From Candidatus Poseidoniales archaeon (GTDB lineage Archaea; Thermoplasmatota; Poseidoniia; Poseidoniales; Poseidoniaceae): a stretch of 64,000 bases of DNA. A program made the position numbers and the translations under genes. This document shows, piece by piece, positions 9,610-32,894 of the stretch. Where the stretch lies: assembly GCA_019651595.1 (NCBI GenBank), contig BOYQ01000005.1, positions 13,456 to 77,455 on the forward strand, in the 5' to 3' direction. The notes below the pieces were generated by a model, which had not been told where the DNA came from, did not search any database, and saw only the letters and a list, made by a program, of their open reading frames with translations. The first letter of the stretch is position 1. Every line of letters starts with the position of its first letter.

Positions 9610-9711
9610 GATTCCCTGCCGAGGACCGAGACTCTTGAACCCTCGCCATGCGACCGTGGGACCTGACCGTTCAACCAATCCTTGATGAGGTTCCCCGGGC
9701 TGGAAGAAGCC

Positions 9712-12700: not shown

Positions 12701-15294
12701 CGTCCACTGAAATGGGTCGATTGGGCTGTGCGGACACCGACGGCGACGGCTACGCCGACGTTGACGATGCGTTTCCCAGTGAATCCACCCAATGGAACGA
12801 CACCGACGGCGACGGCTACGGCGACGAAGCCTCCGGATTCGAAGGGGATGCGTGCCCCGCCACCAGCGGCACCTCGATGCGAGACCGGTTCGGGTGCACC
12901 GACACGGACAACGACGGCTCCTCCGACGGGGACGCCAACTGGACGACGGCCAACGGGGCCGACATTGCGCCCAACGACAGCACGCAGTGGGCGGACAGCG
13001 ACGGGGACGGCTACGGTGACAACCCGTCCGGCACCAACGGAGACGCCTGTCCTTCGGTAGCAGGCACCTCGACCGCCGACCGGCGTGGTTGCCCCGACAC
13101 CGACGGTGACGGCTACTCGGACCCCGACGGTTCGTGGACCGTGGACAACGGCGCCGACGCCTACCCCAACGACCCCAACCGCTGGGGCGACAGCGACGGG
13201 GACGGCTACGACGACGGTTTGGACGACGATTGCCCGGCGCTTTTCGGCACCTCCGTTCACGACCGAAAGGGATGTCCGGACCAAGACGGTGATGGTTACT
13301 CCGACCCTGACAGCGGTTGGACGACCGCCAACGGCGCCGACGCCTTCATGACCGACTCAACGCAATGGAACGACACCGACGGCGACGGCTACGGCGACAA
13401 CCCGGCAGGTGCTGCACCCGATGCGTGTGTCAACACCTACGGTACGTCCTGGCAGAACGGCACCTACGGCTGTCCTGACGGCGACCAAGACGGGTGGGGA
13501 GACGACCAAGACACGCACCCCGCCGACCCAACCCAGTGGTCCGATGCCGACGGCGATGGCTACGGCGACAACCCCGGAGGTACCCTACCCGATGCCTGTC
13601 CGACGGTTTGGGGCAATTCCACACAGGGTAACCGACTGGGTTGCCTCGACAACGACGGTGACGGTTGGGACAACAGCATCGACGCCCTGCCCGACCTTCC
13701 AACGCAGTGGCTTGACCAAGACGGGGACGGCTACGGCGACAACGCCACCGGGATTCAACCCGACGCGTGTCCCGGCGAGGCTGGCACCTCAAGCATCGGC
13801 TTGTACGGTTGCGTTGACGATGACGGCGACGGCCACGCCAACCTGACGGATGATTTCCCCCTCGACCCCACCCGGTGGATCGACAGCGATGGCGACGGCT
13901 ACGACGATGCTGAGGATGCGTGCCCCTTCATCAACGGCAACTCCACTCAAGACCGGGTGGGATGCTTGGACACCGACGCTGATGGATTTTCAAACCCCAC
14001 GCCACCGGTTGGCAACAACAGCGGTTGGAACACCTCCAACGGCGCCGACGCCTTCCCCGACGAACCCACGCAGGCCGTGGACGGGGACGGGGACGGCTAC
14101 GGCGACAACCCCAGCGGCGTTGAAGCCGATGCCTGCCCGACCCAAGCCGGCTCCTCCAACGTCGACCGATTCGGCTGTGTGGACGAAGACGGTGACGGCA
14201 CCTCCGATGCCAGCGATGCGTTCCTCGGAAACCCGACCCAATGGATCGACACCGACGGCGACGGCTACGGCGACAACCCCAACGGCACCCAGGCCGATGC
14301 CTGCGTGGCGACGGTTGGAACGTCCACCGTGGACGTGTACGGCTGCACGGACGGCGACGGGGACGGTGCCAGCGATGCCAACGACCTCTGGCCCAACGAC
14401 GCCACGCAGTGGTTTGACAGCGACGGGGACGGCTACGGCGACGAGACCCAAGGGACGGACGGCGATGCCTGTCCAAACGATTTCGGCCCCTCAACCGCCA
14501 GCAACACCTTCGGGTGCCCCGACGGCGATGGCGACGGGTGGGCGGACCAGCAGGACGCGTTCCCCGACCAGCGGAGCCAACAAATGGACAGCGACGGGGA
14601 CGGCTACGGCGACAACGCCACGCTCGGCGCGTTCAAGCCCGACCACTGGCCCAACGATGCCTCTCGCAGTTCAGCCTCAGCCAGCATGACGTGCACGCCG
14701 GTTTCCATCGAGGTGGACCTGGCAGCGAGCGGGTGGTTCACCTTCACCTGCTCGGTCTCCACGTCCATGAGTTCCGCCTTTGCGGCCACCGTTTCGTGGC
14801 AGGCGACCTCGAGCATCGTGGGGGAATCCTCCGAACACTTCCTGACCTTTACAGCGGCGAGCGGAAACACCCAAGCCGTCACCTTCTCCGGCACCGCTGA
14901 AACCGTGGGTCAGCATCAACTGCTGCTTTCGGCGGCGGAACCGGGTGCTGAGAACCCAATGGACACGGTCGTGGTCGTGGTGGTGGCGACGGATTCCAAT
15001 GCGCCGATCGAAGTGGCCGATGAAACGGAGGGTTCGGTGCTTGAGACCATCACGGAAAGCACCGTGTTGCAGGCTGCCCTTGCCGGCTTGGTGCTCTTCG
15101 TGTTGATGGGGACGTTGATGATTCGTGGCCAAAGCCGACGAGCAAGGGACCAGGAACGCCGCATGATGCGAGCAGCAGAACTTCGACAAACTCGGGGTTT
15201 GGCCGACCTGCCGAACCGTGAAATGACTCAACCACGACCCGCCGAACGTCAGGTGCGAGGCGGGTCGATGTTCGATGATTTCCGTCGCCGGTGA
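9712..15294 (+). CDS. Secreted S8 (subtilisin-like) serine protease with a long thrombospondin type-3-like Ca-binding repeat region and C-terminal TM
   Basis: Catalytic triad motifs VADTG, HGTHVAG and GTSMATP; NDLDL beta-domain; dozens of DxDGDGxxD repeats; TM near the C-terminus. Confidence 0.93.
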   Translation: MQSHRRRTTGVFIALLLVKVLSPMAFAQPSEASSSTDTEAALAWLEQLNIAPSDAAQHGWVSPDQTASTTHLLYRDVGLIAPSDWTEETGQQRVEGFHILGHTYPVPSDWFLDLAAAGIDCYSFMPPASFHCDVSATTPAALAQLNVVGLAAMDVTDKVQTDLVRGLLGFEMVAPNPFVNQEGAVVNVVLSGETLPEGLNHRSGIALDSHSGRFATMALTPDSLAWLVQQEEIEWVEPRPFFEIMNSVGIEVMNVDDTWNSTNMANIDATWSGLDGSGVIVTVADTGLDNGVNNSNMHPDFRDHITGILSFPPAASTCASLSLSPCGDDAEDHHGHGTHVAGSVLGDGTHSNGAIIGAAPEAHLLVHSIATTHNGEEKLLGIPNNLDDLFKLAWANGSRVHTNSWGSAVAGQYTTSSMQADASARTHDEMVILFAAANEGADANRDGEIDLDSMGSPATAKNVLTVGASENDRSNMTWVWGSSDYGSPISTDRLADNPEGMAAFSSRGPTDDGRLKPDFSAPGTMILSTKSRSTTSVGWLAHNASYTYMGGTSMATPLTAGASALLLEHLMENLGETNPTSALVKAIFTASAHDMTGQYSSSTNGAGEAAPNNHEGWGRINMSQAINTSYLYGHSVVTNADSGWSFNVPASADDINIALTWTDPASTPSASTNLVNDLDLALKSPSGTWTNVSNNLDNLRGLTLGTPAQGTWELHVVGTSVPTGPQFFAVAMTGDYALTNLTQDADLDGYQDADDDCNTTAGTSTIDRTGCPDTDGDGYSNPDGNWTVNNGADAFPSETTQWADQDYDGYGDNAAGVQPDACVATAGNSTGDRFGCTDSDGDGYSNPDGSWTTANGADACSSVSGTSNQDRNGCADQDGDGYSDPDGSWGTTNGADAFPTDDTQWVDSDGDGYGDNPPPATTGDACPSTNGDSMNDRFGCTDSDGDGYSDPDSSWTVANGADAFASDATQWSDADSDGYGDNASGNSPDACPTQFGTSTEMGRLGCADTDGDGYADVDDAFPSESTQWNDTDGDGYGDEASGFEGDACPATSGTSMRDRFGCTDTDNDGSSDGDANWTTANGADIAPNDSTQWADSDGDGYGDNPSGTNGDACPSVAGTSTADRRGCPDTDGDGYSDPDGSWTVDNGADAYPNDPNRWGDSDGDGYDDGLDDDCPALFGTSVHDRKGCPDQDGDGYSDPDSGWTTANGADAFMTDSTQWNDTDGDGYGDNPAGAAPDACVNTYGTSWQNGTYGCPDGDQDGWGDDQDTHPADPTQWSDADGDGYGDNPGGTLPDACPTVWGNSTQGNRLGCLDNDGDGWDNSIDALPDLPTQWLDQDGDGYGDNATGIQPDACPGEAGTSSIGLYGCVDDDGDGHANLTDDFPLDPTRWIDSDGDGYDDAEDACPFINGNSTQDRVGCLDTDADGFSNPTPPVGNNSGWNTSNGADAFPDEPTQAVDGDGDGYGDNPSGVEADACPTQAGSSNVDRFGCVDEDGDGTSDASDAFLGNPTQWIDTDGDGYGDNPNGTQADACVATVGTSTVDVYGCTDGDGDGASDANDLWPNDATQWFDSDGDGYGDETQGTDGDACPNDFGPSTASNTFGCPDGDGDGWADQQDAFPDQRSQQMDSDGDGYGDNATLGAFKPDHWPNDASRSSASASMTCTPVSIEVDLAASGWFTFTCSVSTSMSSAFAATVSWQATSSIVGESSEHFLTFTAASGNTQAVTFSGTAETVGQHQLLLSAAEPGAENPMDTVVVVVVATDSNAPIEVADETEGSVLETITESTVLQAALAGLVLFVLMGTLMIRGQSRRARDQERRMMRAAELRQTRGLADLPNREMTQPRPAERQVRGGSMFDDFRRR
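11935..14660 (+). repeat. Intragenic tandem coding repeats (DxDGDG/TSP3-like)
   Basis: Recurring gacggcgacggctacggcgacaac-type units encoding QWxDxDGDGYGDN...DAC...DRxGCxDxDGDG. Confidence 0.9.
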
Positions 15295-15527: not shown

Positions 15528-16182
15528 ATGGATTTTCTCTCCCTTTGCTTGTTGACCTTGTGGTTGTACCTCCCCGGATTTCTTGCGAACACGTTCGCCA
15601 TGATGTGGGGCAAATGGTTGCCCAAAACCGGCTACGGCCCCTGGCCCATCGACGGTGGCCGAGTGATGGCGGACGGCCATCGAATGCTGGGCGATGGGAA
15701 AACGTGGAACGGTCTCATCGGCGGGTCCCTGACCTCCGGGCTGCTGTGCATGTTGCTGGCTTCGACCGTCGCCACGGGGGACGCAGCCACGGTCTTTGAC
15801 GACGGAGCCACCGTGTTCGCGGCATCCGCTCATCGGCGCTGAAGACGCATGGTTCTACATCGGTGGCGCCAACGGTGCAGCCTTTGTTTTGGGAACCTTC
15901 CTCGGGTTTGCATGCTTGGTGGGCGACAGCACGGGTTCGTTCTTCAAGCGCCGACGCGGCCTCAAGCGAGAGGGTGACATTTCTTCGAAAGCCCCGCTGT
16001 TGGACACGTTGCCGTTTGCAATCATGGTTTTTCTTTGGGGTCAGTTGTTCCTCGGGCCGTCGGTCTTGGCGTCAGAAGAATTGCGTCTGCCCATGCTGGC
16101 GCTGATCATCATCACCCCGGTGCTCCACCGCTCCTTCAACCTCATCGGCTACAAAATCGGGTGGAAAGATGTCCCGTATTGA
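15528..16182 (+). CDS. carS: CDP-archaeol synthase (frameshifted)
   Basis: YLPGFLANT, PIDGG..DG.RMLGDGKTWNG, then in the next frame GDSTGSFFKRRRG and PLLD; these are CarS motifs. Frame change near 15820. Confidence 0.9.
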
Positions 16183-17656
16183 GGACGAGGTGCTGGACAA
16201 AGCCAAGCCCTATCAAGAGCGGGCTCAAGGCCTGACCGTGTTCGGCGGCTCTGAAGCAACGCTGAAGGCGTTCCTGCTCGTTTCCTTGATGCTCATCGCC
16301 CCGCTCTCAGGATGTTTCGGGGAAACCGAGGAGACCGAAACGGTTGATCTTGAGGTGGCGTTAACCATCGACGGCACGGCCCCGTCGGAAGCCGTGTTTC
16401 GGGCCGGTGAATGGCACGATGTGTTGCTCATCGGCGAAAATCTCCGAATTTCTGCACCCGCCCACGACGTGCTGTTGTTCGTGGACGGCGTCATCGACAT
16501 CGACAGTTCCGTCCCGGTTGAGGGTGACCGTGTCAGCGTCCAGTTGCTGACCACGCCCTACACCGAGCACGTCGAACTGGTGGTCTACGCCACTGACGGT
16601 ACCAAAGCCGTCTTCAACCAAAGCATCACCAACGGCACGCCCATCATCACCGGTGAAGCGTGGTACGAGAAGATGGACTACATCACGTGCGACACGCCCT
16701 CCGATGACTGCGGGTCCTACAATTTCCGCTGGATGGGCAGCCCCAACGCACAGTTCGAGCGGGCTGCTTCGTACTTTCAGGGTCATTTCGAGGGGTTGGG
16801 CTACGACACGCACCTCATGCGTGTGGTTGACACCCTCAATCCAACCCAACCCGAGTCCCTCAACGTCATCGCCTGGAAAGAGGGGCGCAGCGACGATTGT
16901 GTTCAGGGGATGGGCGCCCACATGGACATCGCACCACCCGCCGGTCCACCCGGAGGGGGAACCTGGGAAGGCGCTTACGACAACACGGCAGGCACCGTGG
17001 CCATCATGATGTACGCACAAGTTCTGGTCGACCTTGAGGTTGAATGCGACACCTTCCTCGCCCTGTGGTCCTCTGAGGAAGAAGGGCTGCGCGGCTCAAA
17101 CGCGTTTGCCAACAACGACTGCGAGGCTTGTTTGCCCCAAGACAAGGAACTTCGATTTTACATCAACATGGACATGATGGGCATTTCCTGGCCCGCCGTC
17201 AAGGAGAACGGCGATCCTTTTCCCTACCACGCTTGGTCTGGCCCGGACGTTGACCCCGAGGTTCAGGACGTCGCCATCACGAGTGTGCTGGACCACGTGC
17301 ACCGCAACATCCTGAAGGCGCCCATGGACCTTCGCATTGATGGAAGTTATGGCGCCGGCTGCGACCAGCATTGGGACGACCACTACAACCTCGTGATGGA
17401 CGTCCACGAGGACACTTTTGGCCGCTCCGACCACGTGACCTTCCGCAACCTCGGGGCTCAGACCATCTTCCACCTCGGCGCCTACGACGAAGACTACTCC
17501 GCCTACCACTCACCGCAAGACACGCTCGAAAACATGGTGGCCGTGGTCGGCGGTCAGGAAAACCTCGAGGAGAGCATCGAGTTCGTGTTGTGGGCGGCCT
17601 TCTTGGAGTTCGTCTTGGCCGACCAAGACCCCGAAATCCGCAACGTCAACGCCTGA
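16169..17656 (+). CDS. M28 family metallopeptidase, putative lipoprotein (start uncertain)
   Basis: LSGC lipobox-like motif; Zn-ligand motifs GAHMD, GAYDN.AG, SEEEGLRGS, NMDM, SDH and YH. Confidence 0.9.
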   Translation: MSRIEDEVLDKAKPYQERAQGLTVFGGSEATLKAFLLVSLMLIAPLSGCFGETEETETVDLEVALTIDGTAPSEAVFRAGEWHDVLLIGENLRISAPAHDVLLFVDGVIDIDSSVPVEGDRVSVQLLTTPYTEHVELVVYATDGTKAVFNQSITNGTPIITGEAWYEKMDYITCDTPSDDCGSYNFRWMGSPNAQFERAASYFQGHFEGLGYDTHLMRVVDTLNPTQPESLNVIAWKEGRSDDCVQGMGAHMDIAPPAGPPGGGTWEGAYDNTAGTVAIMMYAQVLVDLEVECDTFLALWSSEEEGLRGSNAFANNDCEACLPQDKELRFYINMDMMGISWPAVKENGDPFPYHAWSGPDVDPEVQDVAITSVLDHVHRNILKAPMDLRIDGSYGAGCDQHWDDHYNLVMDVHEDTFGRSDHVTFRNLGAQTIFHLGAYDEDYSAYHSPQDTLENMVAVVGGQENLEESIEFVLWAAFLEFVLADQDPEIRNVNA

Positions 17657-19805: not shown

Positions 19806-20567
19806 TCACGAACCACTGCGTGTGGTTTTGCACCCCACACCCCAGTCCGGATCGGCTTCCATGGCTGAACGGGTGGCCTCCAACAGCACCTCCTCCGGCG
19901 TGAGAACCGGCACGTCAGCAGGCCGCGTGGCCAGGGAGCAATGGTAGCCGTTTTCGTGCCAATAATTCAATTGAATTTTTGAATTTTCAATTGAAATAGT
20001 TGCTGATTCTTTCCCAATTGGAATTTGGATGTTTCTCGGATTGAGGTGCATGCCATGACCGAGGCATTTCTGGACGGCTTCCTTGCCGGTCCATGCCTGA
20101 AAGACATGCTGAGGTGTGCTTCGCAAGGCGTCCAGTTCTGCACCTTTCGCCATCATGTCGTAGGCGTTCTCTGCCAGTTGTCGACCGAGCGGTTCGGCGT
20201 CAAAGCCCACGGCCCGGTCCGATTCCACCAGGGCAACGAACGCCATCCCGTCACTGTGAGCGATGGAGATGTTGGGCAGCGGCGTCCGCTTCCACACACC
20301 TTGGATGTAGGCGAGGGAAGGCGCCCTGCGATCGTTTCTGACCACCTCCACGACGGTGAGGTCGCCAACGCCCCAAGCCCTGAGACCCTGCCCCAGCAGC
20401 CACCGTCCCGTCAAGTGTTCATCACGCCGCTTTTGGGTGACAAAACGCTCAACCTCTGACGCTTGTGCGAGCGGAACCTCCTCCATGTTCCAGGCCCGAA
20501 CCTCAGAGGCGAGCAGTTGAACCCCTGAGGCTCGGGGAGGCGTCAGGCGAACCACCGGCGGGAGCAT
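19806..20567 (-). CDS. 4'-phosphopantetheinyl transferase (Sfp-type)
   Basis: NISIAHS, VGFDAE and WTGKEAVQKCLG motifs; lies immediately downstream of the PKS. Confidence 0.9.
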   Translation of the reverse strand: MLPPVVRLTPPRASGVQLLASEVRAWNMEEVPLAQASEVERFVTQKRRDEHLTGRWLLGQGLRAWGVGDLTVVEVVRNDRRAPSLAYIQGVWKRTPLPNISIAHSDGMAFVALVESDRAVGFDAEPLGRQLAENAYDMMAKGAELDALRSTPQHVFQAWTGKEAVQKCLGHGMHLNPRNIQIPIGKESATISIENSKIQLNYWHENGYHCSLATRPADVPVLTPEEVLLEATRSAMEADPDWGVGCKTTRSGS

Positions 20568-20577
20568 TCGAGGAACC

Positions 20578-23500
20578 TCACCGTTCAAGGGAGAAGCGTT
20601 GGTCTTCAGCGACGTTGGCCATCGCTTTCAGGCGGAGCCCTTTGAGCGCCATAACCGGGGCGTCGTCGTCGCCCACGATCAGCACGTCGTGGACCGTCGT
20701 ACCGTCGTCAAGGGCGTCGTGTTGAACGGTTCGCAGCCTGAGCGTTTCGTCGGCTTCGGGGACGCGAAGCATCGTTGACCATTCAATCCCGACCGGAAGG
20801 CTGCTGTAGCCGAGGATTTCCATGGCCACCAGGCCGGCGTTCTGGAACCCGGCTTCAATGAGCATCGGCAGCGCTTCCAACAACACGGGTTCGCCGGCCT
20901 GTTCCAGAGCGAACTGATCTGAGGCTGGCAGTTGGTGGCGCATCAGGGCCAAACCGTCGATGCCCGGCCCGGCAACGTCTCCCGAACCGGCGAGGACGCC
21001 GCCATGGGATTGGAAACGAGGGCCGTGGAAATACCGGTCGTAAATGAAGGAAGGCGGGTGCATCAAGGACCCCATGGGTGGCGTACCGATGGTCGGCAGC
21101 GCCTCCACCTCGCGCTGGAGGAACGGTCGCAGGTCGTCGTGCTTGGCGACCAGTCGAACAAGGGCTTCGTGGTGCTCGCGTTCACCAAACACTTCGCCTT
21201 TTGAGTTCATCAAATCCGAGACCAAACGGCATCGAACCCAAGTCAAATCGCCGTCCGTTCGGTCGACCTCGGCTTCAACGCGAACCGTCATCGGGCCCTT
21301 GATGAGTTTGACCGGCAAACCAAACGTGACGGCTTCAAAGCCGGCAAGGCAACTCGATGGATGCAAGAGAAGAGAGGTTTGTGCGAACATCTCCAAGGCC
21401 ATGACGCCGGGGTGGTAGGGAACGCCTTCGATGGCGTGGTCCACAAGGAACGGATGGTCGTCGGTGGACAGGGTGCTTTGTGTGGTGAGACGCACCCCTT
21501 CTTCCAAGGCCAGCACCTTGTCCACGAAGGGGAAACGCGTCGGGTCCGCCATCGCCGCAGCCATTTCGGCAGGCAATTTGAGCGGCGCTTCTCGGAAGGA
21601 GGAAAACCGGTCCATCAGGCCCAGCGAACCGCAGCCCAAAACCCGGCGTTTGCCGCCTCTGAGGGCTTCATCAACGAAGATCGCCACGCCGTCTTCAACC
21701 GCAAGGGTCTCGATGCCCGCAGCCGCAAACACCGCCTCAATGGACCCGCGCGTGGCCATGCCAACGTCGCGCCAGCCGGTCCAACCGATGGCGACGGCTC
21801 GGCAGTCATGGGCCGCCGTCAGGCGAGCCATTTCTGCATCCAACACCGAGTTGGCCGCCGCGTAATCGGTTTGGCCGCCGTTGCCAAACCGCCCTGCAAC
21901 GCTGGTAAAGCAACACGCAAACGTCGGTGCATCGCGACCGGAAGCCTTCACTGCGGTGAGCAAGGATTGCCAGCCGTCGACCTTGACCCGGACAACCCGG
22001 TCAAACACATCGTAGCCCTTGTCGGCCACCAATTTGGAATCCTCGAGACCTGCGCCGTGAACAACACCCGTGATGGGGCGCCCCAGACCCTCGCCCAGGG
22101 CTTCAAGCGCCGAACGGTCCATCACGTCAACGGCGTGATAGGTGGCGTGGTTACCCGTTTGTTCGATGGCGTTCAAGGTGAGGTACACGTCTCGACTTCG
22201 AGTGAACCGCTGCCATGCACGGTTCCATTCGACCATCGTGACCTTGCCGTTTTCGCTTGCATCAATGAGACGTTGCCGAAGGGCGTTCTTCTCTTCACCG
22301 AGTTGCTCGTCCGTCCAATCAATCCATGTTGCCGTTGATTCGATGAGCGTTGAACGACCGAGCAATTCGAAATGAGCACCCGCGTTCTGGCTTGCTTCCG
22401 CTACACCGATGACGGAGGCGGCTGTGACGCCCGAACCCCCACCCGAAACCAACCACGTGTCATCGGAGGTCAGGGGCTGAAGGTCCTCAACAACATCCTC
22501 TGCAAAGGCCACCAGCGCCCAGCGACGACCGTCCCGGTCCAACCCGACCTCAACCTCACCGGCCAAGCCGAACAGGTCATCCTCGATTCGCTTGGCTGCC
22601 TCAACTTCGTCGAGCACGAATTCGGGATGCAGGTCCAGCGCCCGGCAACGGAGATCGGGCCGTTCAAAGGCATAGGATTTGGTGACACCGCTGGCCGCAC
22701 ATTGGACGGCGTTGAAACGATCACCGAGATTGCCGTGCCGACCGTCGAGGGACGTCACGGAAGCGACGACACCCGGTTGATCAACAGAGAGTTGCCCGCC
22801 AAGCTCCTTGAGGAGGCCGAACCATCCGTGGGCCGCCAAGGCGATTTGGGAAGACGGGTAGGAGTCTTCCTCCACTGCTCCGATGCGAGTTTCAGCGGGG
22901 CCAGGTGCACGAGCCCCGCCAGCGGTGTCCCGTCGAGTTGTTGAGCAATCCACGCCAGGTGTTCGGGTTGTTCCGGGTCGGCCCGGTAGACCGTTCGCTC
23001 ACCCTCGTCGTGGCGTGATGCATCGCGGATGCGACTCTCAAAGCCGATGCGGACAGCGGCCAATCCACGGGCTTCCATTCGCTGGCAGAAAGCCTCAGCG
23101 ATGCCCCACCCGTCGTCGGACACGACGATGGTCCCGCCACGTCAAGCGGCGCAGGTTCACCGGGACAGTCCTCGATTTCAACCTGCCATCGGCGGGTCCC
23201 CGCCTGATGCGATGTCGGACGTTCGGCCGCCATCGCACCAGCGCTGGCTTCCGCGACGGAAGCCTCAGCGGGCGGCGAGGACGCATTGGTTTCGCCGCCA
23301 CGCATCTGACGATGTAGGCCGTGAAATGATTGAGCGTGGGGTGGTCTGCGAGCACGAAGTCCTCGTCGACGGGTAACGAGAACCGGTCCCGAATCTCGGC
23401 CATGATCTCGGCCTGCTTGACCGTGTCAATGCCCAGCTCGCCCTCGAGGTCCTGGTCCATTTCGATGAAGTCCGCCGGGTAGCCGGTGTGGTCAACCACC

Positions 23501-26500
23501 ACCGAAACCAGCACGTCCTCAATGTCGCTGTGAGACCCGGTTGCGACGGAAGGAGCAGGGGTTGGGGTTGGTGCAGGGGTGGGGGGCGCAGGAGCGGGGG
23601 CTGCCGGAGCAGGGGCAGGCACCAGAGCAGCCGGCGCACCGCCTGTCATCCGTTGGATGTAGCCAATCATGTGGTTGAGGGTGGGGTGGTCGGCCAGGAC
23701 GAAATCTTCGTCCACCGGGAGAGCGAACTTGTCGCGGATGTCCGCCATGATCTCGGCCTGTTTCACCGTATCAATCCCCAACTCACCTTCCAAATCCTGG
23801 TCAGTTCATGAAATCAGCGGGATAGCCCGTGTGTTCCACCACCACGGCCACGACCGTGGCGGTCATTTCGGCATCGTCGACCACGGCGGCGGGTGCTGGA
23901 ACGGGCACTTCGGTTGCAGCGATGGGAGCCGTTTCCGGAGCACTGGGGGCAGGCTCGGGGGCCGGGGCGGAGGGCGCAACGGCCTGTTCACCACCGGTCA
24001 TGCGCTGGATGTAGCCGATCATGTGGTTGAGCGTCGGGTAGTCCGCCAGAACGAAATCCTCGTCAACGGGCAGGCCGAAACGCTCTCGAATGTCGGCCAT
24101 GATTTCGGCTTGTTTGACCGTGTCAATGCCCAATTCCCCTTCGAGGTCTTGGTCGAGTTCGACGAAGTCGGCCGGATAACCGGTGTGATGAACCACCACG
24201 TCAATGACGGTCTTCACCATCTCTTCGTCGCCCACCACGGCGCTGCAGCGACGGGCGCCTCGGGCGGTGCAGGTGCTGGCGCAGCCACCGGCTCAGGCTT
24301 GACCGCCGGCGTTGGTGGCGCAGCGGCGGGCTCGGGTTCGGCCGATGCCGGCGAAGGTTTCCCTTCCCACGGAGCGGTGGCGGGCCAGGGTTCGCCCTGC
24401 ACTCCACCGTGGAGATTGTCATCGCCGTTGACGTAGGCCACGAGTTTGTTTTGCAAGACCCGCATCACGACATCGTCGGTTCCGGCGAGGCTTCGAGCCC
24501 AAGCCAACAACCGGGCCCCGTCAATGCGCTCGCCCTCAACGGGCCAGGCTCGCAAGAGCGACAGGGCGATTTGCGAGCCGAATCCGGCAGCGAACCGAAG
24601 TCCGTACTCCAATTCGGGGTAGTGGCCGCCCTTCGAGAGGTTCAGGTCGCCCAGTTCGGGGTCCTTCTCCTTGTGATTGGCGATGGGTGGGATGCGGCCG
24701 GTCTTCAGGCCGTAGAGCATGCTGGCGTCTTCGATGCCAACCGCCATCGGATGGCCGGTGAACCCCTTGGTGTTGGCCACCACGAGTTTGTTGGTGGAAT
24801 CGCCGAAGGTGTCGCGCAGGGCCTTGACCTCGGACTGAGCGGAACCGCCTCGGGCAGGCGTGTAGGTTTCGTGGGAGAAAAACACGGTGTTGGGGGCCAT
24901 CGCGTGCCGGTCAAGACCCCACCGTCGTTCCATGTCGGTGATGAAGCCGTTGACGACTTGCCCCACGTGCTCGACGTCCAACCGTGTCCCGTGGTAGGCG
25001 GAATTGGCCGTGGTCGAACCGAGGACCTCGGCGATGGGTTGCACACCACGCTGTTTCGCCTCGGAGTGCCGTTCGATGACAAACGCAGCGGCGCCCATGC
25101 CGAGGATCAACCCGTTGCGACGGCGGTCAAACGGCAGGGCGGTTTCCTCGACCACGTTGTTCGTAGCGGCGGCGCCGGACGCTGCGAAGCCGCCCGCAAT
25201 CCATTCCCAAAGGTCGTCGCCGGTGACGTCGTCACCGCTGATGATGACCACGCGGTCGACGCGGTCGGCGTCAAGCCAGTCTTCCGCTACGCCGAACGCT
25301 GCAGTAGCGGAGGCGCATGCGAGGTTGATGGTGGTGTTTGGACCACGAATCCCCGTGTACTGAGCGAATTGGGAATGCCCCATGTTGAGGGTTTGGAAGA
25401 GGTAGCGTCGGTCAAAGCGACCCTCGCCATCATCCCCGTTGGTTTTGGCGTGCTTGACACCCATCTGAAGGCCGGGGAAACACGAGGAAAACACGATACC
25501 GGTGCGTTCCCGCTGAACTTGAGGGACCTGCCAGTTTCGGATCAATCGCAAGCCTCCTTTGCCAATCTGTTCCACCGGTGTGAGCGGAATACCGGCATCC
25601 CGAAGCGCCAGCAGTCCGGAAGCGACCGCCAGCTGGGTGCTGATGTCCCATGCGAGGATGGCTTTGGGATCGATGCCGAATTCTTCGGCGAGGTCAAAGG
25701 CGCCTTTCAGGCCGGCCAGTTGAGGAATGTCACCAAACACCTTGGCCTGGTCCATGTTGACCGAGCCGTCTCGCCCTTTGATGAGCCGGACGATGTTCTT
25801 GTCCAGAAGGCGTTGCTTGTATTCGTCCGAGACTTCGCTGATGCAGGTCTCGCCTCGAACCAGTTTCTCAAACGCATCCTCTGAGAACACCCGGTCCATG
25901 CCGGGCAAGCCCAACGAAATGCCCGTGACCACGTAGGGGTCCACGTCCCGCCGAGAGGCGGTGCTGAGGGCGCTCACGGTGTGAACGGGCGCCGCCTTCA
26001 ATGAAACGGGAGAAGCGACCGACGTCATGGGCGCCCATGCGGCGGGCGGTGAGCGGACCCATCGATTCAGGTCACCCGCTGTTGTGGCGGTCGTTCCGTC
26101 GTACTCCGGGTCGGTTTGAGCCTCCGAGGCAATCGTGGCCACGACGCTCTGCACCTGTTGGGCCGTCAAACCCAGACCCTCGATCAGCGACACATGGCCG
26201 TGACAGAACGAGGCAGGATAGCCGCTGTAGGCCGCAATCCGATCGCCGACGTAGGCACGAATCGCCCGATCACGTGCGTAATCCGAATCCATCGGACCGG
26301 CTTGCACCGTTGCGGAGGCGGCCGCCACGGGTGCACCGGTGCCGCTCCCGGGAAGGGGTCGGGCGCGGGTACGAAGGGATTCCAGGGCGGCAGAATCGTG
26401 GGGTGGGACGATCGACGATGCCGAGCGCGCTTCAATGGGTCCGGCCTTGAAGCCGTCCTGCAGCGCGTCAGAATCCAGGCCGGGCCAAACGGGCGGTCGA

Positions 26501-29391
26501 CCGGCGAGCGCCAGGGCACCGATGGCGGTCAGCAAACTTGCAATGCCGCCTTGCTTGGGGTGGTTGGTCATCACGGGAACGTGAGGTTGACCCTCGAGGA
26601 TTTGCATGGCAAACATGGTCAGCGCTCGTTTCGGCCCGACTTCGACAAACAGGCGGCCACCGGCATCGTACATGGTTTGGATTTGCTTCGTCCACTCCAC
26701 CGATGAAGCCATTTGAGGGGCAAGTTGTTCCAAAATGGCCGCCTTCGAATCCACCCCCTCCATGGGGTAGAACGAACCGTCAACGTTGGCGGTGATGGGG
26801 ACGGATGGCCACCGAATCTCCAAGCCCTCGAGGAAACGGCGGAGCGGTTCGTTGGCCGGTGCGACGATGCGGGAGTGGAAGGCATGGGAGGTGGCCAGCG
26901 CAACACACGAGAATCCTTCGGCTTCAAAGGTCGCCATGGCCGCCTTGACGGGTGCCGTTTCACCCGCTATGACGGTCATCTTAGGGGAGTTTTTGTTGGC
27001 CGCAATCACGTAGCCTTCGGTCGCCTCGAGCACGCGTTCTACGACGTCATACGGTGCCGTTACGCTGGCCATTAACCCCTTGTCGTCGATTTCCACGGAA
27101 CCCATCTCGGTCCCACGGGCGGCCGCTGCACGAAGGGCGCCGTCCATGTCGAGGATGCCCGAAGACATCAGCGCTGCGTATTCACCCAGCGAGTGGCCGG
27201 CCACCATGTCCGGGGCGTGGCCAAAGGCGCCCAAGGTTCGCTCGATGGCCAAATCGGCCGTGAGCATGGCCGGCTGCGTGTACTCGGTTTGCTTGAGTTT
27301 GTTTTCCGCTTCTTTCAATTCCTCTTTGCTGAGGGTGGTGCGCAACACGAAGCCGGAGAGCGTTTCACCGCCCAGCACGTCGACCATGGTTTCATCGGCT
27401 TGGCGCCAAACGTCTGCGGGGGCGGTGAAGCGTTGAACCAAGTCAGCCGTCATGCCGACGTACTGACTGCCTTGGCCGGGGTACATGTGGACGGTTTTTG
27501 CTTCGGCAGGCATGGCGGGCTGGTCGGTGATCAAGACGCCTTGTGCCTGAAGGAAACCCCATTTGTCGGGGTCCATCATCGCCTGACCTGCGAGGGTTTG
27601 TCGCTTGTTGAATTCCGCCCACGAGGTGGCGACCAGCGCCAGCCTGTAGGGTGCCTGAGGGTCAAAGGAGGTGCTGGCCTCCTGAAGAGCCTCCGAAAGA
27701 CGTCGTCCCCTCGGATCGTCGTCAAAGAGCGGGCCGTCAAAGGACACGGCCCCCAGCGTGGCACTCAAGCCGTCCAGCGAAGCGGCAGAAAGGAGAAGGA
27801 CACCGCCTTCAACGGCCTTGATTTCCTCGTGGGTCATCGTGGCGGCAAGGGTCCCGTCAAAGATGGACGGGGCTTCCGCAGGACCTTGCCCGCTGTAGGC
27901 GGCCCAGCGAGCGTCCCATTCCGCTGCCATGGGCGCGTGGAAATCGGGCTCGTAGCCTTCCAGGGCCACGTGGAAGTTCGTGCCACCGAACCCGAAGGCC
28001 GAGACGCCGGCTCTGCGAGGATGGGCAGCCGGGCGGGGCCATTCGAGGGGAGCGGTGGGAACGAAGAACGGAATGTTGGACCAGTCCACCGTTGGATTGG
28101 GCGTCTCAAAATTCGCACTTGGAGGGATGGTTCGGTGGTGAAGGGCCATCACGGATTTCAGAATACCGGCCATCCCGGCTGCCGCCTTCAGGTGCCCGAT
28201 TTGGGACTTGATGGAACCAACGGCCACGTTGCCCGGACCATCAACACCGGTCCACAATCGGGACAAGGTGGACAATTCGGTGGCGTCACCCACCTTCGTC
28301 GACGTCCCGTGTGCTTCCACCAGTTCAACGCTGGATGCATCATAGCCGGCTTGGCTGTAGGCTCGGGCAATCGCTTGGATTTGGCCGCGTTGGCTGGGAG
28401 CGGTGATCCCCTTTCCTCGCCCGTCGGAGGAGCCCCCGATGCCGCGTATGACGCTGAAAATCTCGTCCTCGTCCCGCATGGCATCGCTCAGTCGCTTGAG
28501 AACGAGAACGCCGGCACCTTCGCCCATCACGAACCCGTTGGCACGAGCATCAAACGGCGAGGAGTGGCTGGGTGAAAGAGCACCAATGGCTGAAAATTTG
28601 GCAAACGTCGCAGGGTCCATCGTGCGGTCGGAGGCCCCGGCGAGCATGACGTCGACTTGACGCGTCTGCAAAAGGCGGCAGGCATCTAACACCGCCGCCA
28701 TGGAAGAAGCGCATGCAGCGTCCATGGCGTGGTTGGGCCCTTGAAGGTCGAGCAGGTTCGCCACACGACCCGAGACCACGTTCGCAAGTTCACCCGGCAT
28801 GGTGTCCTCATCCACGCGAGGGGCGCCTTCGAGCATGGCCTCGGTGAAGCCCTCGACCTGACCCTCGGGGAGGCCGTGGGACTTGGCCAGCGTGACGGTG
28901 TGGTTTGACCACACGCGAAGGTTGGACAGGTTGCGGTTTTCGCCGCCCAAGGCGTTGGCAAACACCACGCCGGTTCGCGTTCGGTCGATGTCTTTGGTCT
29001 CGCCGTCGTAGCCCGCATGTTCAATGGCGTCCGCCGAGACCGTGACGGCCCACAACTGGCAGGGATCGATCTGTGGCAGGGTGCCGGGGGGTTGTCGCCA
29101 TCGACGCCAGTCGAACTCGGCATCGGCCACAACGGCCCCGATTTTTGCATAGGAGTAGCCCTCCGTGTGCGAGCCCGGACCGCCTTCTTTCCAGAAGTGA
29201 TCGATCGGTCCCGGCCATCGGCCGTCCGGCAGTGGTCGAATGCTGACCTTGGCGTCCAGGATGTTCTGCCAGAAGGCCTCGATGTCGTGGGCATCGGGCA
29301 TCAGCGCCCCCAAGCCGATGACCGCAATGGGCTCAAAGGGACCCTGGTCAACCCCTTCGCAGGGTTTGCCGTCTTCCGTCGTCAAGCCCAT
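20578..29391 (-). CDS. Iterative type I polyketide/fatty-acid synthase (PfaA-like): KS-AT-(degenerate ACP)-KS-ACPx3-KR-DH, about 2,900 aa, split by about five indels
   Basis: KS1 DAACASS/EAHGTST/GHLKAAAG; AT PGQGSQ/GHSLGE/HAFHS; KS2 NLACAS/SHETYT/GHPM; three ELGIDTVKQAE ACPs; KR SGGGSG...YAAAN; DH DHAIEGVPYHPG and FHGPRFQ. Frame changes near 24240, 23805, 23305, 23135 and 22870. Confidence 0.92.
23305..24225 (-). repeat. Three tandem ACP-encoding repeats separated by Pro/Ala-rich linkers
   Basis: Near-identical HTGYPADF.E.DQDLEGELGIDTVKQAEIMA.IR..F.LPVDEDFVLAD.PTLNH units. Confidence 0.9.
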
Positions 29392-29400
29392 GCTTTCACC

Positions 29401-30192
29401 TCAGTTCATGATGCTCTCCGGCACCATCGTGATCGAATACCCAGCATCGACGTAGATGCACTGGCCGGTCACGCCCGCCGCCAGCGGGCTGGCAAGCCAG
29501 AGGGTTGCGCCCGCCACATCGTCTTGGCTGACGTTCCTTCGCAGCGGCGCGTTGGCTTCAACGTGGTCGAGAATGCGGTCGAAGCCAGGAATGCCGCTGG
29601 CGGCAATGGTCCTGATGGGGCCCGACGAAATGGCGTTCACACGATGACCTTCGGGCCCGAGGTGGCAAGCCAATTCCCTCGTCCAGCACTCCAAGGCCGC
29701 CTTGGCCATGGACATGATGCCGTAGCTCGGAACGTAGCGGTTGGAGGCGGCGTACGTCAGCGTGATGGTGGACGAGCCCGGGTTCAAGTAGGGAAGGGCG
29801 TGCTTGAGGCAACGCTGCAACGAGTTGGCCGAGATGGTCATGGCGGTGTTGATGTCCTGGTCCTCCACGAAGAGAACGGGGCGGTCAAAGCACGCCCGAG
29901 GAGCAAAGCCGATGGCATGAACCAGAATGTCTGCTTTTTTCCCGGGGTGCTCAGCGGCAAAGGCGGTGAAGAATTCCTGCGTGGTCGCATCCGAAGCAAC
30001 GTCCAACGGGTAAAATCCTCCGATGGCCGGAAGTTGGTCCTTGAGTTTGAAGACTCGACTCATGAAGCGCTTCTGGTACCCCAAATACAGGGTCACGCCA
30101 GCAGCAGCCAGTTGCTTGCAAATCGCCCAGGCGATGGAATCCTCACTGGCCACACCGAACACAAAGGCCGTTTTTCCTTGGAGCCCGAGCAT
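29401..30192 (-). CDS. fabI: Enoyl-ACP reductase FabI
   Basis: GVASEDSIAWAI, HAIGFAP, catalytic YGIMSMAKAALE, RVNAISSGPIRTIAASGI and VDAG; 9 bp upstream of the PKS start. Confidence 0.93.
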   Translation of the reverse strand: MLGLQGKTAFVFGVASEDSIAWAICKQLAAAGVTLYLGYQKRFMSRVFKLKDQLPAIGGFYPLDVASDATTQEFFTAFAAEHPGKKADILVHAIGFAPRACFDRPVLFVEDQDINTAMTISANSLQRCLKHALPYLNPGSSTITLTYAASNRYVPSYGIMSMAKAALECWTRELACHLGPEGHRVNAISSGPIRTIAASGIPGFDRILDHVEANAPLRRNVSQDDVAGATLWLASPLAAGVTGQCIYVDAGYSITMVPESIMN

Positions 30193-30309
30193 GAAAAACC
30201 TCCGTGGGGATAAGGTGTAGTGCCCTACACCAAGCCTTTGAGCGTTGCTCATGAAATCGTGTCACATCGACCGAGTTAGCGGTGCGGGACCAACGGCCAA
30301 ATCTCGGCC

Positions 30310-31392
30310 TCAGAGGTCGGCGAAAACGTCGTCAAACTCGTCGTCGTCGTCCTCAGGGAACAGGTCGTCAAGATCGGAGAAGTCAAACTCGTCCTCATCC
30401 TCGTCATCATCCTCGACCTCGACCGGTGGGACGTAGACGGGTTGGGCGTTGGCACGACGGCGAAGCGTACGGGCCAGGGCCACGATGAACACAAGACCGA
30501 AGAGCACGGCTGCGCCGATGCTGCCGTACATCACCAGCGTGTCCTTGTCCACTTCTTCCAAGCCGCCGCCAAGCCCGCCAGCGGAACCGCTCGCCTCCAG
30601 CTGGAGGGAGATGCTCACCTCGCTCACCGGCGCAGCATCGTCGTTCCCGCTCGCTGCCTGGAAGGTGATTTGGTATCGAGCATCTTCAGGCACGTCCGAT
30701 GGAGCCCGGACGGACAATTCTCGCACGGGCGACACACCGTCTTCCGAGACGTCGTCGGCGACAAAGGTACCACCCGGGAAGGTGAACCCTGCCTCCTCAA
30801 GTTCAGCGGCGTTGACGATGGTCACGCTGATTTTGTCATCGTCGTTGCCGTTGTTTTGGAACTGGAAGGAGATCTTGACCTCGTCGCCTCCCGTCATGGT
30901 GCGGGTGCTCTTGTCGGAGATGTCCAAATCCACCATGCCAAACGTGGCGATGTTGAGGTCGCCGCTCACCGTGGCGTTGGAGGCCAAGGCTTCGGGCCAG
31001 TCCAGCATGCCGACGTTGGTCACCGTAGCGGTCAGAGCAAAGTCGATGGAGAGGTCCGATGAGAGGCGGGTTTGACCGGAAAAGGTGACGGTGAAGTCTT
31101 CCTCTTCATCGGGCCCGAGGGTGAAGGTGTCGTCCTCCAGCATCATGTCGACCTCAATACCGTCCCACTCCTTCTCCACGCTGACGGTTTCCTCGAAGGA
31201 TGACGGATTCTTGACGGTGCAGGTGATCTCAACGACGGGGTCGCTGAGCGGGTGGACATCAAGCTCAGGCTGCTTGTCGTCGCAGTCGATTTCAACACCC
31301 GGAGCTGTAGGGGTTTGAGCGGCCGCCACCGAGAGGAAGCCGCACAGCATCATCGCTGCCAGCACCAAACCCAATCGGCGTGTGGTCACCAT
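30310..31392 (-). CDS. Secreted beta-sandwich protein with C-terminal TM and acidic tail (choice-of-anchor T-like)
   Basis: Signal peptide, CTVKNP and NNGNDDD motifs, TM followed by RRR, D/E-rich tail. Confidence 0.7.
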   Translation of the reverse strand: MVTTRRLGLVLAAMMLCGFLSVAAAQTPTAPGVEIDCDDKQPELDVHPLSDPVVEITCTVKNPSSFEETVSVEKEWDGIEVDMMLEDDTFTLGPDEEEDFTVTFSGQTRLSSDLSIDFALTATVTNVGMLDWPEALASNATVSGDLNIATFGMVDLDISDKSTRTMTGGDEVKISFQFQNNGNDDDKISVTIVNAAELEEAGFTFPGGTFVADDVSEDGVSPVRELSVRAPSDVPEDARYQITFQAASGNDDAAPVSEVSISLQLEASGSAGGLGGGLEEVDKDTLVMYGSIGAAVLFGLVFIVALARTLRRRANAQPVYVPPVEVEDDDEDEDEFDFSDLDDLFPEDDDDEFDDVFADL

Positions 31393-31474: not shown

Positions 31475-32341
31475 CTATTCACCGTACACCAGGGCGGGCA
31501 ATTCGCTGTGCGTGTTCCACATGACGGCTTCGTCCACCCCGGCCTCGAGAAGCTGTTGAGTTCGCTTCGGCACGGTTTTGGGCCCGAGAACCGCTCCGGG
31601 TCGACGAGGGTCGTCCATGTAATCGGTTTCCAGAAAGAACCCGTGCTTGGCGTCCAAATGAGTTTCTATCAGGCGCTCGATGGCCCCTTTTCCGCACAAG
31701 ACACTCGGGGTGAGTCCGTGCGTGTTGGACGTGCGAACATCGGGTGGCGAGTAGTGCCGAACGAGTTTGCGGAGGTCCATCCCCTGTCGCAGGGCACGCC
31801 GGGCGAGGTCCGGGTAGGTCTCGTCGCTTTCACCTTCGACGTGAAGCTGCAGCGGTATCCCCTCCTGCGCAGCAAGATGCATGGTTTCGTCCAGCAATTC
31901 GTTGGAGAGATCCCAAATCTCGTCGGAGACCGGCCAGTGCGGACGCCCGACTTCACCGATGGCGTGAGCGTGGCCTTCATGCACCAGTTCAAGGGCTGCT
32001 TGGATGCTGTGCCGATAGTTCTCCACGGCACGTTCCTTCCCCGCAGGGCCCTCTTCGCTTACCCATCGTTCGAACTGATGGGCAAAGGCGGCGGGGTGCG
32101 GTCCGAGGACCACACGGACCCCCAGTCCCACCTCGTCGCGCACGGATTGCGCCATGGCCACCGTGTCGCGATAAGCCGTTTGATGGCCCGCCAACGTCTC
32201 GGGAGGTGAAGTAAAATCCGGGCAGTGGACCAGCACCACATCGGTCCCACCGACCCGCTGGAACGCTCGTGCAGCGTCCAAGAACAGACCTCGTCGGTTC
32301 AGGTGGAAATGGTTGTCCAAGATCGGACCGTCGTAGACCAT
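31475..32341 (-). CDS. TatD-family metal-dependent hydrolase
   Basis: DNHFH, GPHP, IGEVGRPHW, LQLHVE, RHY and ETDYMDD motifs. Confidence 0.9.
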   Translation of the reverse strand: MVYDGPILDNHFHLNRRGLFLDAARAFQRVGGTDVVLVHCPDFTSPPETLAGHQTAYRDTVAMAQSVRDEVGLGVRVVLGPHPAAFAHQFERWVSEEGPAGKERAVENYRHSIQAALELVHEGHAHAIGEVGRPHWPVSDEIWDLSNELLDETMHLAAQEGIPLQLHVEGESDETYPDLARRALRQGMDLRKLVRHYSPPDVRTSNTHGLTPSVLCGKGAIERLIETHLDAKHGFFLETDYMDDPRRPGAVLGPKTVPKRTQQLLEAGVDEAVMWNTHSELPALVYGE

Positions 32342-32351
32342 GGGCGCCCCC

Positions 32352-32894
32352 TCAAATACGTTCCACGAACAGACCGCGCTCCGTGAAGACGCCCTTCCAG
32401 TACACGGCAGCCATGGCCACCATGTTGGGGTGCCGGGCATCGGCAACGATGCACTTCCCGTTGGGCCAAAGTTGCACGGTGAGGCTGTGGCGTGTGTCGG
32501 TCAAGGTGGTGCATCCCAAACGAGCGTCGTATTCAGCGGAACCCGACGGGAGGGTGGCAGGGATGGCTTCGAGGTTGACGGCTTGTTCGAACTGGAACGA
32601 GACCACCACGGGGCCCATCTCGGCGACCAAGCCGCTGTCATCCATGCCCATGCGAAGAAGCAGTTCTTTCGCAGCGGCACGAGCAGCCTCAACGCGGTGG
32701 GTGCCGTGAACAACAATGCGACCCATCTCATCGATGACAAGGGTGGCTCGTGGTCGTTCCATGGCTTTGATGACCACGCCGCTGTTTCGCTGGCCACCAA
32801 CCTCCGCCACCACGCGATCGTGGTCGAGGGGAGTGGGACAGACGAACCGAACGAGTTGGTTTTCAACCCGAACATCGATGCTGCCGGTCGCCAT
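32352..32894 (-). CDS. Divergent TATA-binding-protein-like protein
   Basis: 180 aa with two TBP-like repeats: VRVEN...PRATLVIDEMGRIVVHG and VNLE...EYD...LWPNGKCIV. Confidence 0.65.
   Translation of the reverse strand: MATGSIDVRVENQLVRFVCPTPLDHDRVVAEVGGQRNSGVVIKAMERPRATLVIDEMGRIVVHGTHRVEAARAAAKELLLRMGMDDSGLVAEMGPVVVSFQFEQAVNLEAIPATLPSGSAEYDARLGCTTLTDTRHSLTVQLWPNGKCIVADARHPNMVAMAAVYWKGVFTERGLFVERI

Follow-up and report, generated by a model that had tools for sequence, protein, structure and literature searches.

Can an acyl carrier protein (ACP) carry its phosphopantetheine cofactor on a threonine? By the rule of carrier-protein chemistry the cofactor sits on a serine, and the known motif rules require that serine. 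The question is raised by a megasynthase gene of a Marine Group II archaeon (Poseidoniales), which lies in a 64,000-nucleotide stretch of DNA (assembly GCA_019651595.1, contig BOYQ01000005.1, positions 13,456 to 77,455 of the forward strand) that we analyzed as a whole and refer to as the window. The gene codes for a ketosynthase (KS), an acyltransferase (AT), a second KS-like domain (KS2), three tandem ACPs, a ketoreductase (KR) and a dehydratase (DH). In all three ACPs the conserved helix-II Ser of carriers of the Pfam PP-binding family (PF00550) is replaced by Thr; each copy reads ELGIDTVKQAE, with the sequence context DQDLEGELGIDTVKQAEIMA. The features concerned are as follows.

23999 to 24226, minus strand: ACP1, matched by PF00550; Thr codon at 24119-24121; AlphaFold2 model with a mean pLDDT of 95.8.
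23647 to 23872 (approximate limits), minus strand: ACP2; Thr codon at 23767-23769; N-terminal part out of frame (bases missing at 23801 and 23807).
23302 to 23529, minus strand: ACP3, matched by PF00550; Thr codon at 23422-23424.
20578 to 29391, minus strand: synthase gene, KS-AT-KS2-ACPx3-KR-DH, about 2,940 amino acids, from Pfam matches on its pieces and collinear tblastn.

The original prediction had placed three Thr-bearing ACPs at 23305-24225. The three domains are indeed present there, but that prediction missed that they lie on the minus strand and in a broken reading frame; it was also made without knowledge of the archaeal host and of the Ser-bearing orthologues described below. The codons for the segment LGIDTVKQAE lie at 24104-24133, 23752-23781 and 23407-23436, with ACG for the Thr in each copy, as had been stated. 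The codons preceding it are GGC ATT GAC in ACP1 and ACP3 versus GGG ATT GAT in ACP2, and the copies share 72-79% DNA identity in pairwise comparison, with 20-24 synonymous codon differences per pair over 52 shared codons. Because the flanking codons differ and the copies have diverged at so many synonymous positions, the Thr is not a copied slip. The earlier argument from neighboring synonymous codons against a sequencing slip holds on these codons and on contigs from three independent studies, which we describe next.

Five frame switches between 22866 and 24358 split the synthase into several open reading frames (ORFs) in the window. The pieces are collinear with an intact orthologue of 2,952 residues (locus L058), with 91% and 90% identity over long unbroken parts in tblastn. 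We compared the stretch 22700-24500 with the contigs of three DNA sequencing runs, X1, X2 and X3, each from a different study, and of one RNA run, X15. The DNA contigs span the whole stretch; those of X15 cover parts of it and, being contigs, cannot show transcription. The comparison yielded the following feature.

Behind 22871, 23132, 23306, 23801, 23807 and 24237/24238, no strand: six single-base assembly deletions, each seen as an extra base in public contigs.

The extra base is present at all six places in the contigs of the three DNA runs, and at 22871 also in those of X15. Since these contigs restore the frame at the same places, the breaks are assembly deletions and the gene is not a pseudogene. 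No change in the Thr codons occurs among the differences listed between the window and the DNA-run contigs, and a pseudogene or sequencing-error reading of these codons was rejected on the restored frame. Frameshifts were placed by tblastn and contigs instead of by DNA-level alignment, which at 79% identity to the nearest orthologue compared (about 90% at the protein level) was too noisy. The ACPs were found in 23 of 24 congeneric genomes, mostly within one open frame of 2,924-3,011 residues, the shorter frames lying on short or cut contigs; all 20 congeneric loci that were read have GIDTVKQAE throughout.

Apart from the acceptor, the domains have the features of ordinary carriers. PF00550 matches all three with 37-55 bits (cut-off 20.8) and the intact orthologue with 87.6 bits over three stretches. 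ACP1, 76 residues long, contains no Ser at all. Outside ACP1-3, PF00550 has no match in the whole 1.79-Mb window genome (64% complete). The G-x-D-S strings in the frames of the gene are located within the AT domain or directly behind it, or else off frame; none of them is a PP-binding match, in line with the original prediction, to which no GxDS-type ACP was visible in the synthase. A profile of 17 Thr-type ACPs matched 46 solved carrier proteins, the best being the PigH didomain (E 4.7e-19), and the Thr aligned to Ser in the four alignments shown. Within the 17 sequences the helix-II motif D35, T36, V37, K38 and Q39 is invariant. The AlphaFold2 model of ACP1 has three long helices and a short turn, with Thr36 opening helix II. 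The fold and the helix-II recognition surface are those of canonical PP-binding carriers such as E. coli AcpP, PigH and the CurA ACPs; the acceptor is Thr here, whereas it is Ser in every solved relative shown aligned.

Querying 1.84 billion cluster representatives with ACP1 yielded 4,648 hits (E ≤ 1e-3), and we analyzed the best 150. Among these, 107 had Thr in every ACP and 41 had Ser in every ACP, the latter comprising the polyunsaturated fatty acid (PUFA)-type DSIKRVE and a DSIKKAQ type; the remaining two had Thr plus one degenerate domain. Counted by domain, the 150 representatives hold 616 ACPs with T in 408, S in 206, A in one and D in one, the A and D cases both belonging to extra domains that are plainly degenerate. 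When one genome per prokaryotic species was scanned for [DE]LG[IV]DTVKQ, we obtained at least 599 matching stretches, at least 595 of them confirmed. In 81 loci with a match, the acceptor position of 243 ACP domains was T in 238, S in four and D in one. Of the best 80 of the at least 599 stretches, some 40 belong to Poseidoniales; other hosts among these 80 include Myxococcales, Bradymonadia, Chloroflexota, Elusimicrobiota, Spirochaetota, Gemmatimonadales and Actinomycetota, the last with an Amycolatopsis strain (L073) and Planobispora takensis NBRC 109077 (L097). The order KS-AT-KS2-ACPn-KR-DH is kept throughout the family, with 2-6 ACP copies. The original prediction had suspected that the DTVKQ trait defines a wider family; the spread of the motif and the count of GxDT against GxDS domains among homologues both bear this out.

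The Thr is maintained at the level of the amino acid and can give way to Ser. Archaeal orthologues encode it by ACG (139), ACC (38), ACT (35) and ACA (26), and because all four Thr codons are in use we conclude that selection acts on the residue. Three Poseidoniales genera of the second large family of the order (g6, g9 and g24) have GIDSIKQAE in both ACPs, amounting to 24 ACPs in 12 of 12 loci, with TCN codons. The genera g3, g4, g11 and g23 have GIDTVKQAE. Thr is also found in all sampled f1 and f2 genomes and in 18 further genomes of the family of the window, which were chosen by similarity and not by motif. The operon, consisting of the gene for a FabI-type enoyl reductase (ER), the synthase and a 4'-phosphopantetheinyl transferase (PPTase), is the same in Ser-type and Thr-type Poseidoniales. 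A FastTree tree of 114 KS+AT rows required four Ser/Thr changes and placed the PUFA-type Ser rows outside one clade that holds all Thr rows. Nested in this clade are further Ser rows: P0076 stands beside P0094, and the archaeal Ser rows lie inside the archaeal Thr rows. In a quick IQ-TREE analysis of 57 rows three changes sufficed, and the archaeal Ser rows formed one clade (SH-aLRT 99) within the archaeal Thr rows. An approximately unbiased test rejected the grouping of all Ser rows (delta lnL 512, p 1.5e-11), a group that was defined by the trait but after the first tree had been seen.

Which enzyme could modify such a carrier? The gene that overlaps the end of the synthase gene codes for a candidate.

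19806 to 20588, minus strand: Sfp-type PPTase, matched by PF01648 and PF17837.

Matches of the enzyme and its orthologue to PF01648, together with PF17837 or PF22624, place them in the Sfp type (group II) of two-lobed proteins of about 230 residues. In 27 sequences G128, D130, E132, W166, E170 and K174 are invariant and S108, H111 and K169 nearly so; over 101 PPTases the motifs GxDxE, WxxKE(A/S)xxK and SxxH are invariant or nearly invariant, being kept alike in the 12 Ser-associated and the 89 Thr-associated enzymes. The dedicated, adjacent PPTase of the original prediction turned out to be a general feature: enzymes of one clade are adjacent to the synthase, fused to it or located 5-6 kb downstream in 73 of 86 loci. 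Fusion to the C-terminus of the synthase was seen in L078, L088, L093 and L102 and in P0022, P0037, P0068, P0074, P0094 and others. The loci lacking a linked PPTase are mostly cut contigs; none was found in the available flank of L096, L104, L110 and L111.

We modelled the PPTase in complex with CoA, Mg and ACP1. The model reached an ipSAE of 0.91, compared to 0.00 for the best control, with at least 98% of contacts agreeing between runs and a partner pLDDT of 92; the mark applied to ipSAE is reached by 58 of 80 solved complexes and by two of 110 mismatched pairs. In the modelled interface ACP residues 35-37 face E132, W166 and E170 of the PPTase, and Thr36 is located at the catalytic Glu. Because PPTase-carrier complexes have already been solved, this pass may show likeness only.

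The census of carriers and transferases leaves this pair by itself. The operon PPTase is the single PF01648 match of the window genome; in all five genomes searched, one of them a single contig, there is one such match, always next to the synthase. PF00550 has no match outside the synthase in 23 congeners, nor in five genomes assembled into 1-10 contigs with a completeness of 92-97%; run as a control on 14 reference genomes, the search detected carriers in 11. Over the ten genomes checked in this way, of which one is a single contig and four have 3-10 contigs, neither a second PPTase nor a further carrier domain was found. G041, the single-contig genome, is of the Thr type and has an intact PPTase with no Ser carrier to act on. 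In members of the order that lack the synthase, there is no PP-binding match whatsoever. Since no other carrier or PPTase is matched in the Thr-type genomes searched, the Thr-ACP is the only candidate substrate of the PPTase there.

We therefore consider it probable, at roughly 0.6, that the Thr is pantetheinylated by the dedicated PPTase and that the ACPs are working carriers with a Thr acceptor in an iterative synthase. The interchange of Ser and Thr at a site held to hydroxyl residues, the intact PPTase motifs and the complex model lend this indirect support, and the gene is better conserved in protein than in DNA. As we picture it, the PPTase would move 4'-phosphopantetheine from CoA to the hydroxyl of Thr36, at the start of helix II, in each ACP. 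The AT would then load malonyl units, which could be supplied by the three carboxyltransferase genes present per genome, and KS1 and KS2 would extend the chain, with KR reducing, DH dehydrating and FabI reducing the enoyl intermediate in trans. The iterative synthase would in this way build fatty-acyl chains in an archaeon that has no other ACP. For acyl release the synthase has no thioesterase domain, and PlsX (PF02504) was not found in any of five genomes; should acyl chains be transferred to glycerol at all, this takes place without PlsX. Two or three PlsC-type acyltransferases are present per genome.

Several points weigh against pantetheinylation of the Thr. The placement of the cofactor is a prediction from sequences and models. 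We know of no described pantetheine acceptor other than Ser, which to our knowledge is present in every carrier protein studied, and a search of the main texts of openly licensed PMC and bioRxiv papers returned none on Thr at the pantetheine site, including threonine phosphopantetheinylation or the DTVKQ motif. In E. coli ACP, the S36T variant is regarded as a form that AcpS does not modify. In the available part of PMC13343975, S36T serves as a phosphopantetheine-site variant and loses a holo-dependent interaction. No column of the PPTase alignment separates the 12 Ser-associated from the 89 Thr-associated enzymes, and hence no sign emerged that the enzyme is specifically adapted to Thr. The closest approach is Pro81 (numbering of locus L024), present in 88 of 89 Thr-associated and five of 12 Ser-associated PPTases, a count confounded by ancestry; this residue may lie in the CoA-binding motif 'x(G/D)xP'. 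In favour of pantetheinylation, the residue after the acceptor follows it closely (T-V 398, S-I 199, T-I 10, S-V 7), but these counts are inflated by shared ancestry, because kin are not independent. All archaeal rows with Ser fall in a single clade, which makes the reversal in archaea one event, without replication. Finally, the carrier searches used PF00550 as the sole model, which could miss a very divergent carrier, and the window genome is 64% complete.

The alternative that survives best, though we regard it as unlikely, is that the Thr-ACPs are never pantetheinylated. They would be structural or docking modules, the synthase would use CoA-bound or otherwise carried substrates, and the PPTase would have another, as yet unrecognized, substrate or role. 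Fatty acid metabolism independent of ACP has been proposed for archaea, archaea are generally devoid of ACP, and the members of the order that lack the synthase also lack a PP-binding match. Ser being, as far as is known, the sole acceptor described, the use of S36T as a site variant (PMC13343975, seen in part) and the absence of a PPTase residue that tracks Thr point the same way. A dead site, however, would not stay S or T in 614 of 616 domains with all four Thr codons in use, nor would one expect the run from D35 to Q39 to be invariant in 17 sequences. The catalytic motifs of the PPTase are all kept, in an enzyme linked or fused to the synthase at 73 of 86 loci, and the Ser orthologues arise inside the clade with the architecture otherwise unchanged. 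Tandem ACPs, here 2-6, are moreover a throughput feature of working PUFA-synthase carriers according to the part of PMC3098273 available to us, which cites Jiang 2008.

Considerably less probable is that the Thr bears a different CoA-derived group, or the acyl chain itself as an oxoester. The PPTase is very distant from solved enzymes: a single-sequence search of the PDB returned only AcpS (E 0.011), and NCBIfam PPTase models score far below their cut-offs on the orthologue. Against this stand the CoA-binding, Mg-binding and catalytic Sfp motifs, which are all present, the service of Ser-type orthologues by the same PPTase clade and the ordinary thioester-handling domains KS, AT, KR and DH. 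Slightly less likely again is a separate Ser-type carrier, encoded elsewhere, that would serve the synthase in trans and leave the in-line Thr domains as relics; the original prediction had kept this alternative. The incompleteness of the window genome and the single Pfam model leave it some room, but it is disfavoured by the restriction of PF00550 matches to the synthase in 23 congeners and five near-closed genomes, with the control at 11 of 14. An artefact, whether sequencing error or a decaying pseudogene of one strain, can be dismissed for practical purposes: the six frame-breaking deletions and the split PlsC-type acyltransferase and carboxyltransferase genes speak for it, but at all six places the frame is restored by contigs that come from three independent studies, none of the differences listed falls on a Thr codon, and hundreds of intact genes share the motif.

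Beyond Thr pantetheinylation at this locus we entertain a wider reading, tentatively and at slightly less than even odds. O-(4'-phosphopantetheinyl)-threonine would be a natural and widespread modification, made by a dedicated clade of Sfp-type PPTases on ACPs of the Type R synthases described below; the exchange between Thr-Val and Ser-Ile would be a reversible switch governed by a trade-off of packing within the active site of the PPTase; and the pair would constitute the sole carrier system of Marine Group II, driving a type I fatty-acid synthase that would be nearly universal in Poseidoniaceae. Within this reading, the Thr form may insulate the carriers from the Ser-specific housekeeping enzymes AcpS and AcpH. 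What is kept is a Thr at the pantetheine site by a whole family across archaea and many bacterial phyla, including Myxococcota. If that Thr is modified, it would represent a post-translational modification not described so far and offer a ready-made orthogonal pair of PPTase and carrier for engineering, and annotation rules by which such domains count as inactive would have to be revised.

The host lends the locus further weight. The genome of the window carries an archaeal SSU rRNA and ribosomal protein L19e, in agreement with its assignment to Marine Group II. Of 401 genomes sampled from the order, 254 have the synthase, and we found the complete FabI-megasynthase-PPTase operon in 187 of 199 sampled genomes of the family of the window (the Poseidoniaceae side) as compared to 64 of 199 of the other large family. 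In the latter, seven genera have the synthase and in six (g5, g7, g8, g10, g25 and g26) it was not found; the genome size of 1.3-1.6 Mb in these six genera suggests loss along with genome reduction. According to the available parts of PMC6461757 and PMC7852524, Marine Group II is among the most abundant planktonic archaea, lacks the archaeal glycerol-1-phosphate dehydrogenase and is proposed to make mixed membranes using bacterial-like fatty-acid genes. The wider reading, if true, would explain in concrete enzymatic terms where the fatty-acid side of these membranes comes from; independently of the Thr, the operon makes the proposal directly testable. The words 'polyketide' and 'acyl carrier' are absent from the main text of Rinke 2019, and among openly licensed PMC and bioRxiv papers, as far as their text was available, none on this synthase was found for Marine Group II with polyketide synthase (PKS), fatty-acid synthase or ACP, the DeLong review PMC8049014 being likewise irrelevant.

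By its architecture the window synthase matches the uncharacterized 'Type R' secondary lipid synthases, judged from the part of Shulse & Allen 2011 (PMC3098273) at hand. There, one pfaA homologue with the order KS-MAT-CLF-ACP(3-6)-KR is followed by a PPTase; the clusters occur in Acidobacteria, Elusimicrobia and Chloroflexi, in one member an acetyl-CoA carboxylase gene intervenes, and no product is known. The window synthase, KS-AT-(KS-like)-ACP3-KR-DH, fits this definition of a pfaA homologue by description. Its PPTase is directly downstream and has the P1b' motif hShxH, the consensus here being SISH with S108 and H111 nearly invariant. Elusimicrobiota and Chloroflexota loci from metagenome-assembled genomes fall in the Thr clade, in keeping with the Elusimicrobia and Chloroflexi hosts, and the interposed carboxylase gene of one Type R member recalls the single-chain carboxylase of Planobispora. 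A difference from the published description is that the 'CLF' of the window synthase has retained a Cys that aligns with the active site of KS. The words 'threonine', 'serine' and 'archaea' do not occur in the available main text of PMC3098273, and to that extent the Thr trait and an archaeal host are not described there. Judged from sequence, the locus likely codes for a Type R-like synthase with a non-canonical, likely modified acceptor residue in an unexpected archaeal host.

The relationship to PfaA is close but incomplete. Shared are the KS-MAT-tandem ACP-KR-DH order, a dedicated Sfp-type PPTase and related ACP repeats (TGYP...DLEADLGID-x-hK, with DSIKRVE in PUFA-type representatives). 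In contrast, TIGR02813, although the best NCBIfam model, scores 876.6, below its cut-off of 1010.1, and matches KS-AT only (residues 38-970); our synthase has an extra KS-like domain and Thr-Val in place of Ser-Ile, and the PUFA-type rows lie outside the Thr clade. No pfaB, pfaC (KS-CLF-DH2) or pfaD (ER) is found in the flanks of the window synthase or of its relative, which hold FabI, a choice-of-anchor T protein, a TatD-like protein, the PPTase and peptidases. Enediyne PKSEs are iterative, PUFA-synthase-like enzymes of the order KS-AT-ACP-KR-DH-PPTase, with one Ser-type ACP and, as far as is known, no second KS; compared by description, their C-terminal PPTase resembles the fusions in several Thr-type members. 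When the whole synthase was searched against the PDB, the hits were type I PKSs of a general kind with no specific relative among them, and the part of the zeamine paper PMC3547906 available to us has Ser-type motifs only.

The remaining domains of the synthase and the gene directly upstream are the following.

28105 to 29334, minus strand: KS1, matched by PF00109 and PF02801, residues 20-429 of a 1,725-residue ORF.
26590 to 27492, minus strand: AT, matched by PF00698, residues 634-934; GHSLG motif in the orthologue.
24322 to 26394 (approximate limits), minus strand: KS2, the 'CLF' of Shulse & Allen, identified by cross-match to KS.
21766 to 22194, minus strand: Pfam-matched part of KR, PF08659, residues 254-396 of a 791-residue ORF.
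20605 to 21531, minus strand: PKS-type DH, matched by PF21089 and PF14765, residues 475-783 of the 791-residue ORF; HxxxGxxxxP in the orthologue.
29401 to 30252, minus strand: FabI-type ER directly upstream of the synthase, matched by PF13561 (E 7e-70).

KS2 cross-matches KS by phmmer in nearly all family members and has a weak ACP_syn_III hit; BLASTP of KS1 against the KS2 region (E 2e-8) aligns the Cys of its A-C-A-S motif to the active-site Cys of KS1. FabI is likely the trans-acting ER of the synthase. Its place next to the synthase is the same throughout Poseidoniales and at two Elusimicrobiota loci; on the orthologue, NCBIfam FabI models score below their cut-offs. The gene order FabI-synthase-PPTase is found in the archaea and in two Elusimicrobiota loci. 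The intact relative L024 has the order TatD-like protein, choice-of-anchor T protein, FabI, synthase (2,932 residues) and PPTase, the start of the last overlapping the synthase stop. Its synthase has the same domains as that of the window, with KS at 37-445, AT at 656-969 and a region of about 700 residues corresponding to KS2, followed by ACP x3, KR and DH.

In Planobispora the order is acyl-CoA dehydrogenase, synthase, single-chain biotin carboxylase-carboxyltransferase (1,826 residues) and PPTase. Here (L097, 12953-18433) and in other Actinomycetota loci the carboxylase is a eukaryote-like single chain of biotin carboxylase, BCCP, ACC_central and carboxyltransferase. From these genes, the Planobispora-type cluster would be a self-contained unit of malonyl supply and synthase; among openly licensed PMC and bioRxiv papers, nothing relevant was found on a single-chain carboxylase in a PKS cluster.

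The window assembly comprises 12 contigs. In its genome (G000, contig C3) the carboxyltransferase and PlsC-type acyltransferase genes, at 70730-72189 and 97625-98007, respectively, each extend over two frames; in relatives, a single frame holds the gene. The assembly thus seems rich in single-base deletions, which may account for the low completeness estimate of 64%.

Upstream of FabI, as in L024, lie genes for a choice-of-anchor T family protein (30310-31392, minus strand) and a TatD-like hydrolase (31475-32446, minus strand). Some 3.5 kb upstream of the operon, an ORF of 1,956 residues (33706-39576, minus strand) has no Pfam match at E ≤ 0.001, as is the case for the 266-residue ORF beside it (32896-33696). 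The locus is flanked by a subtilase of the Peptidase_S8 family (1,870 residues, 9682-15294, plus strand) and an M28 peptidase (16169-17656, plus strand), the gene of which also adjoins the PPTase in L024. These flanking peptidases are consistent with reports of a proteolytic lifestyle in Marine Group II.

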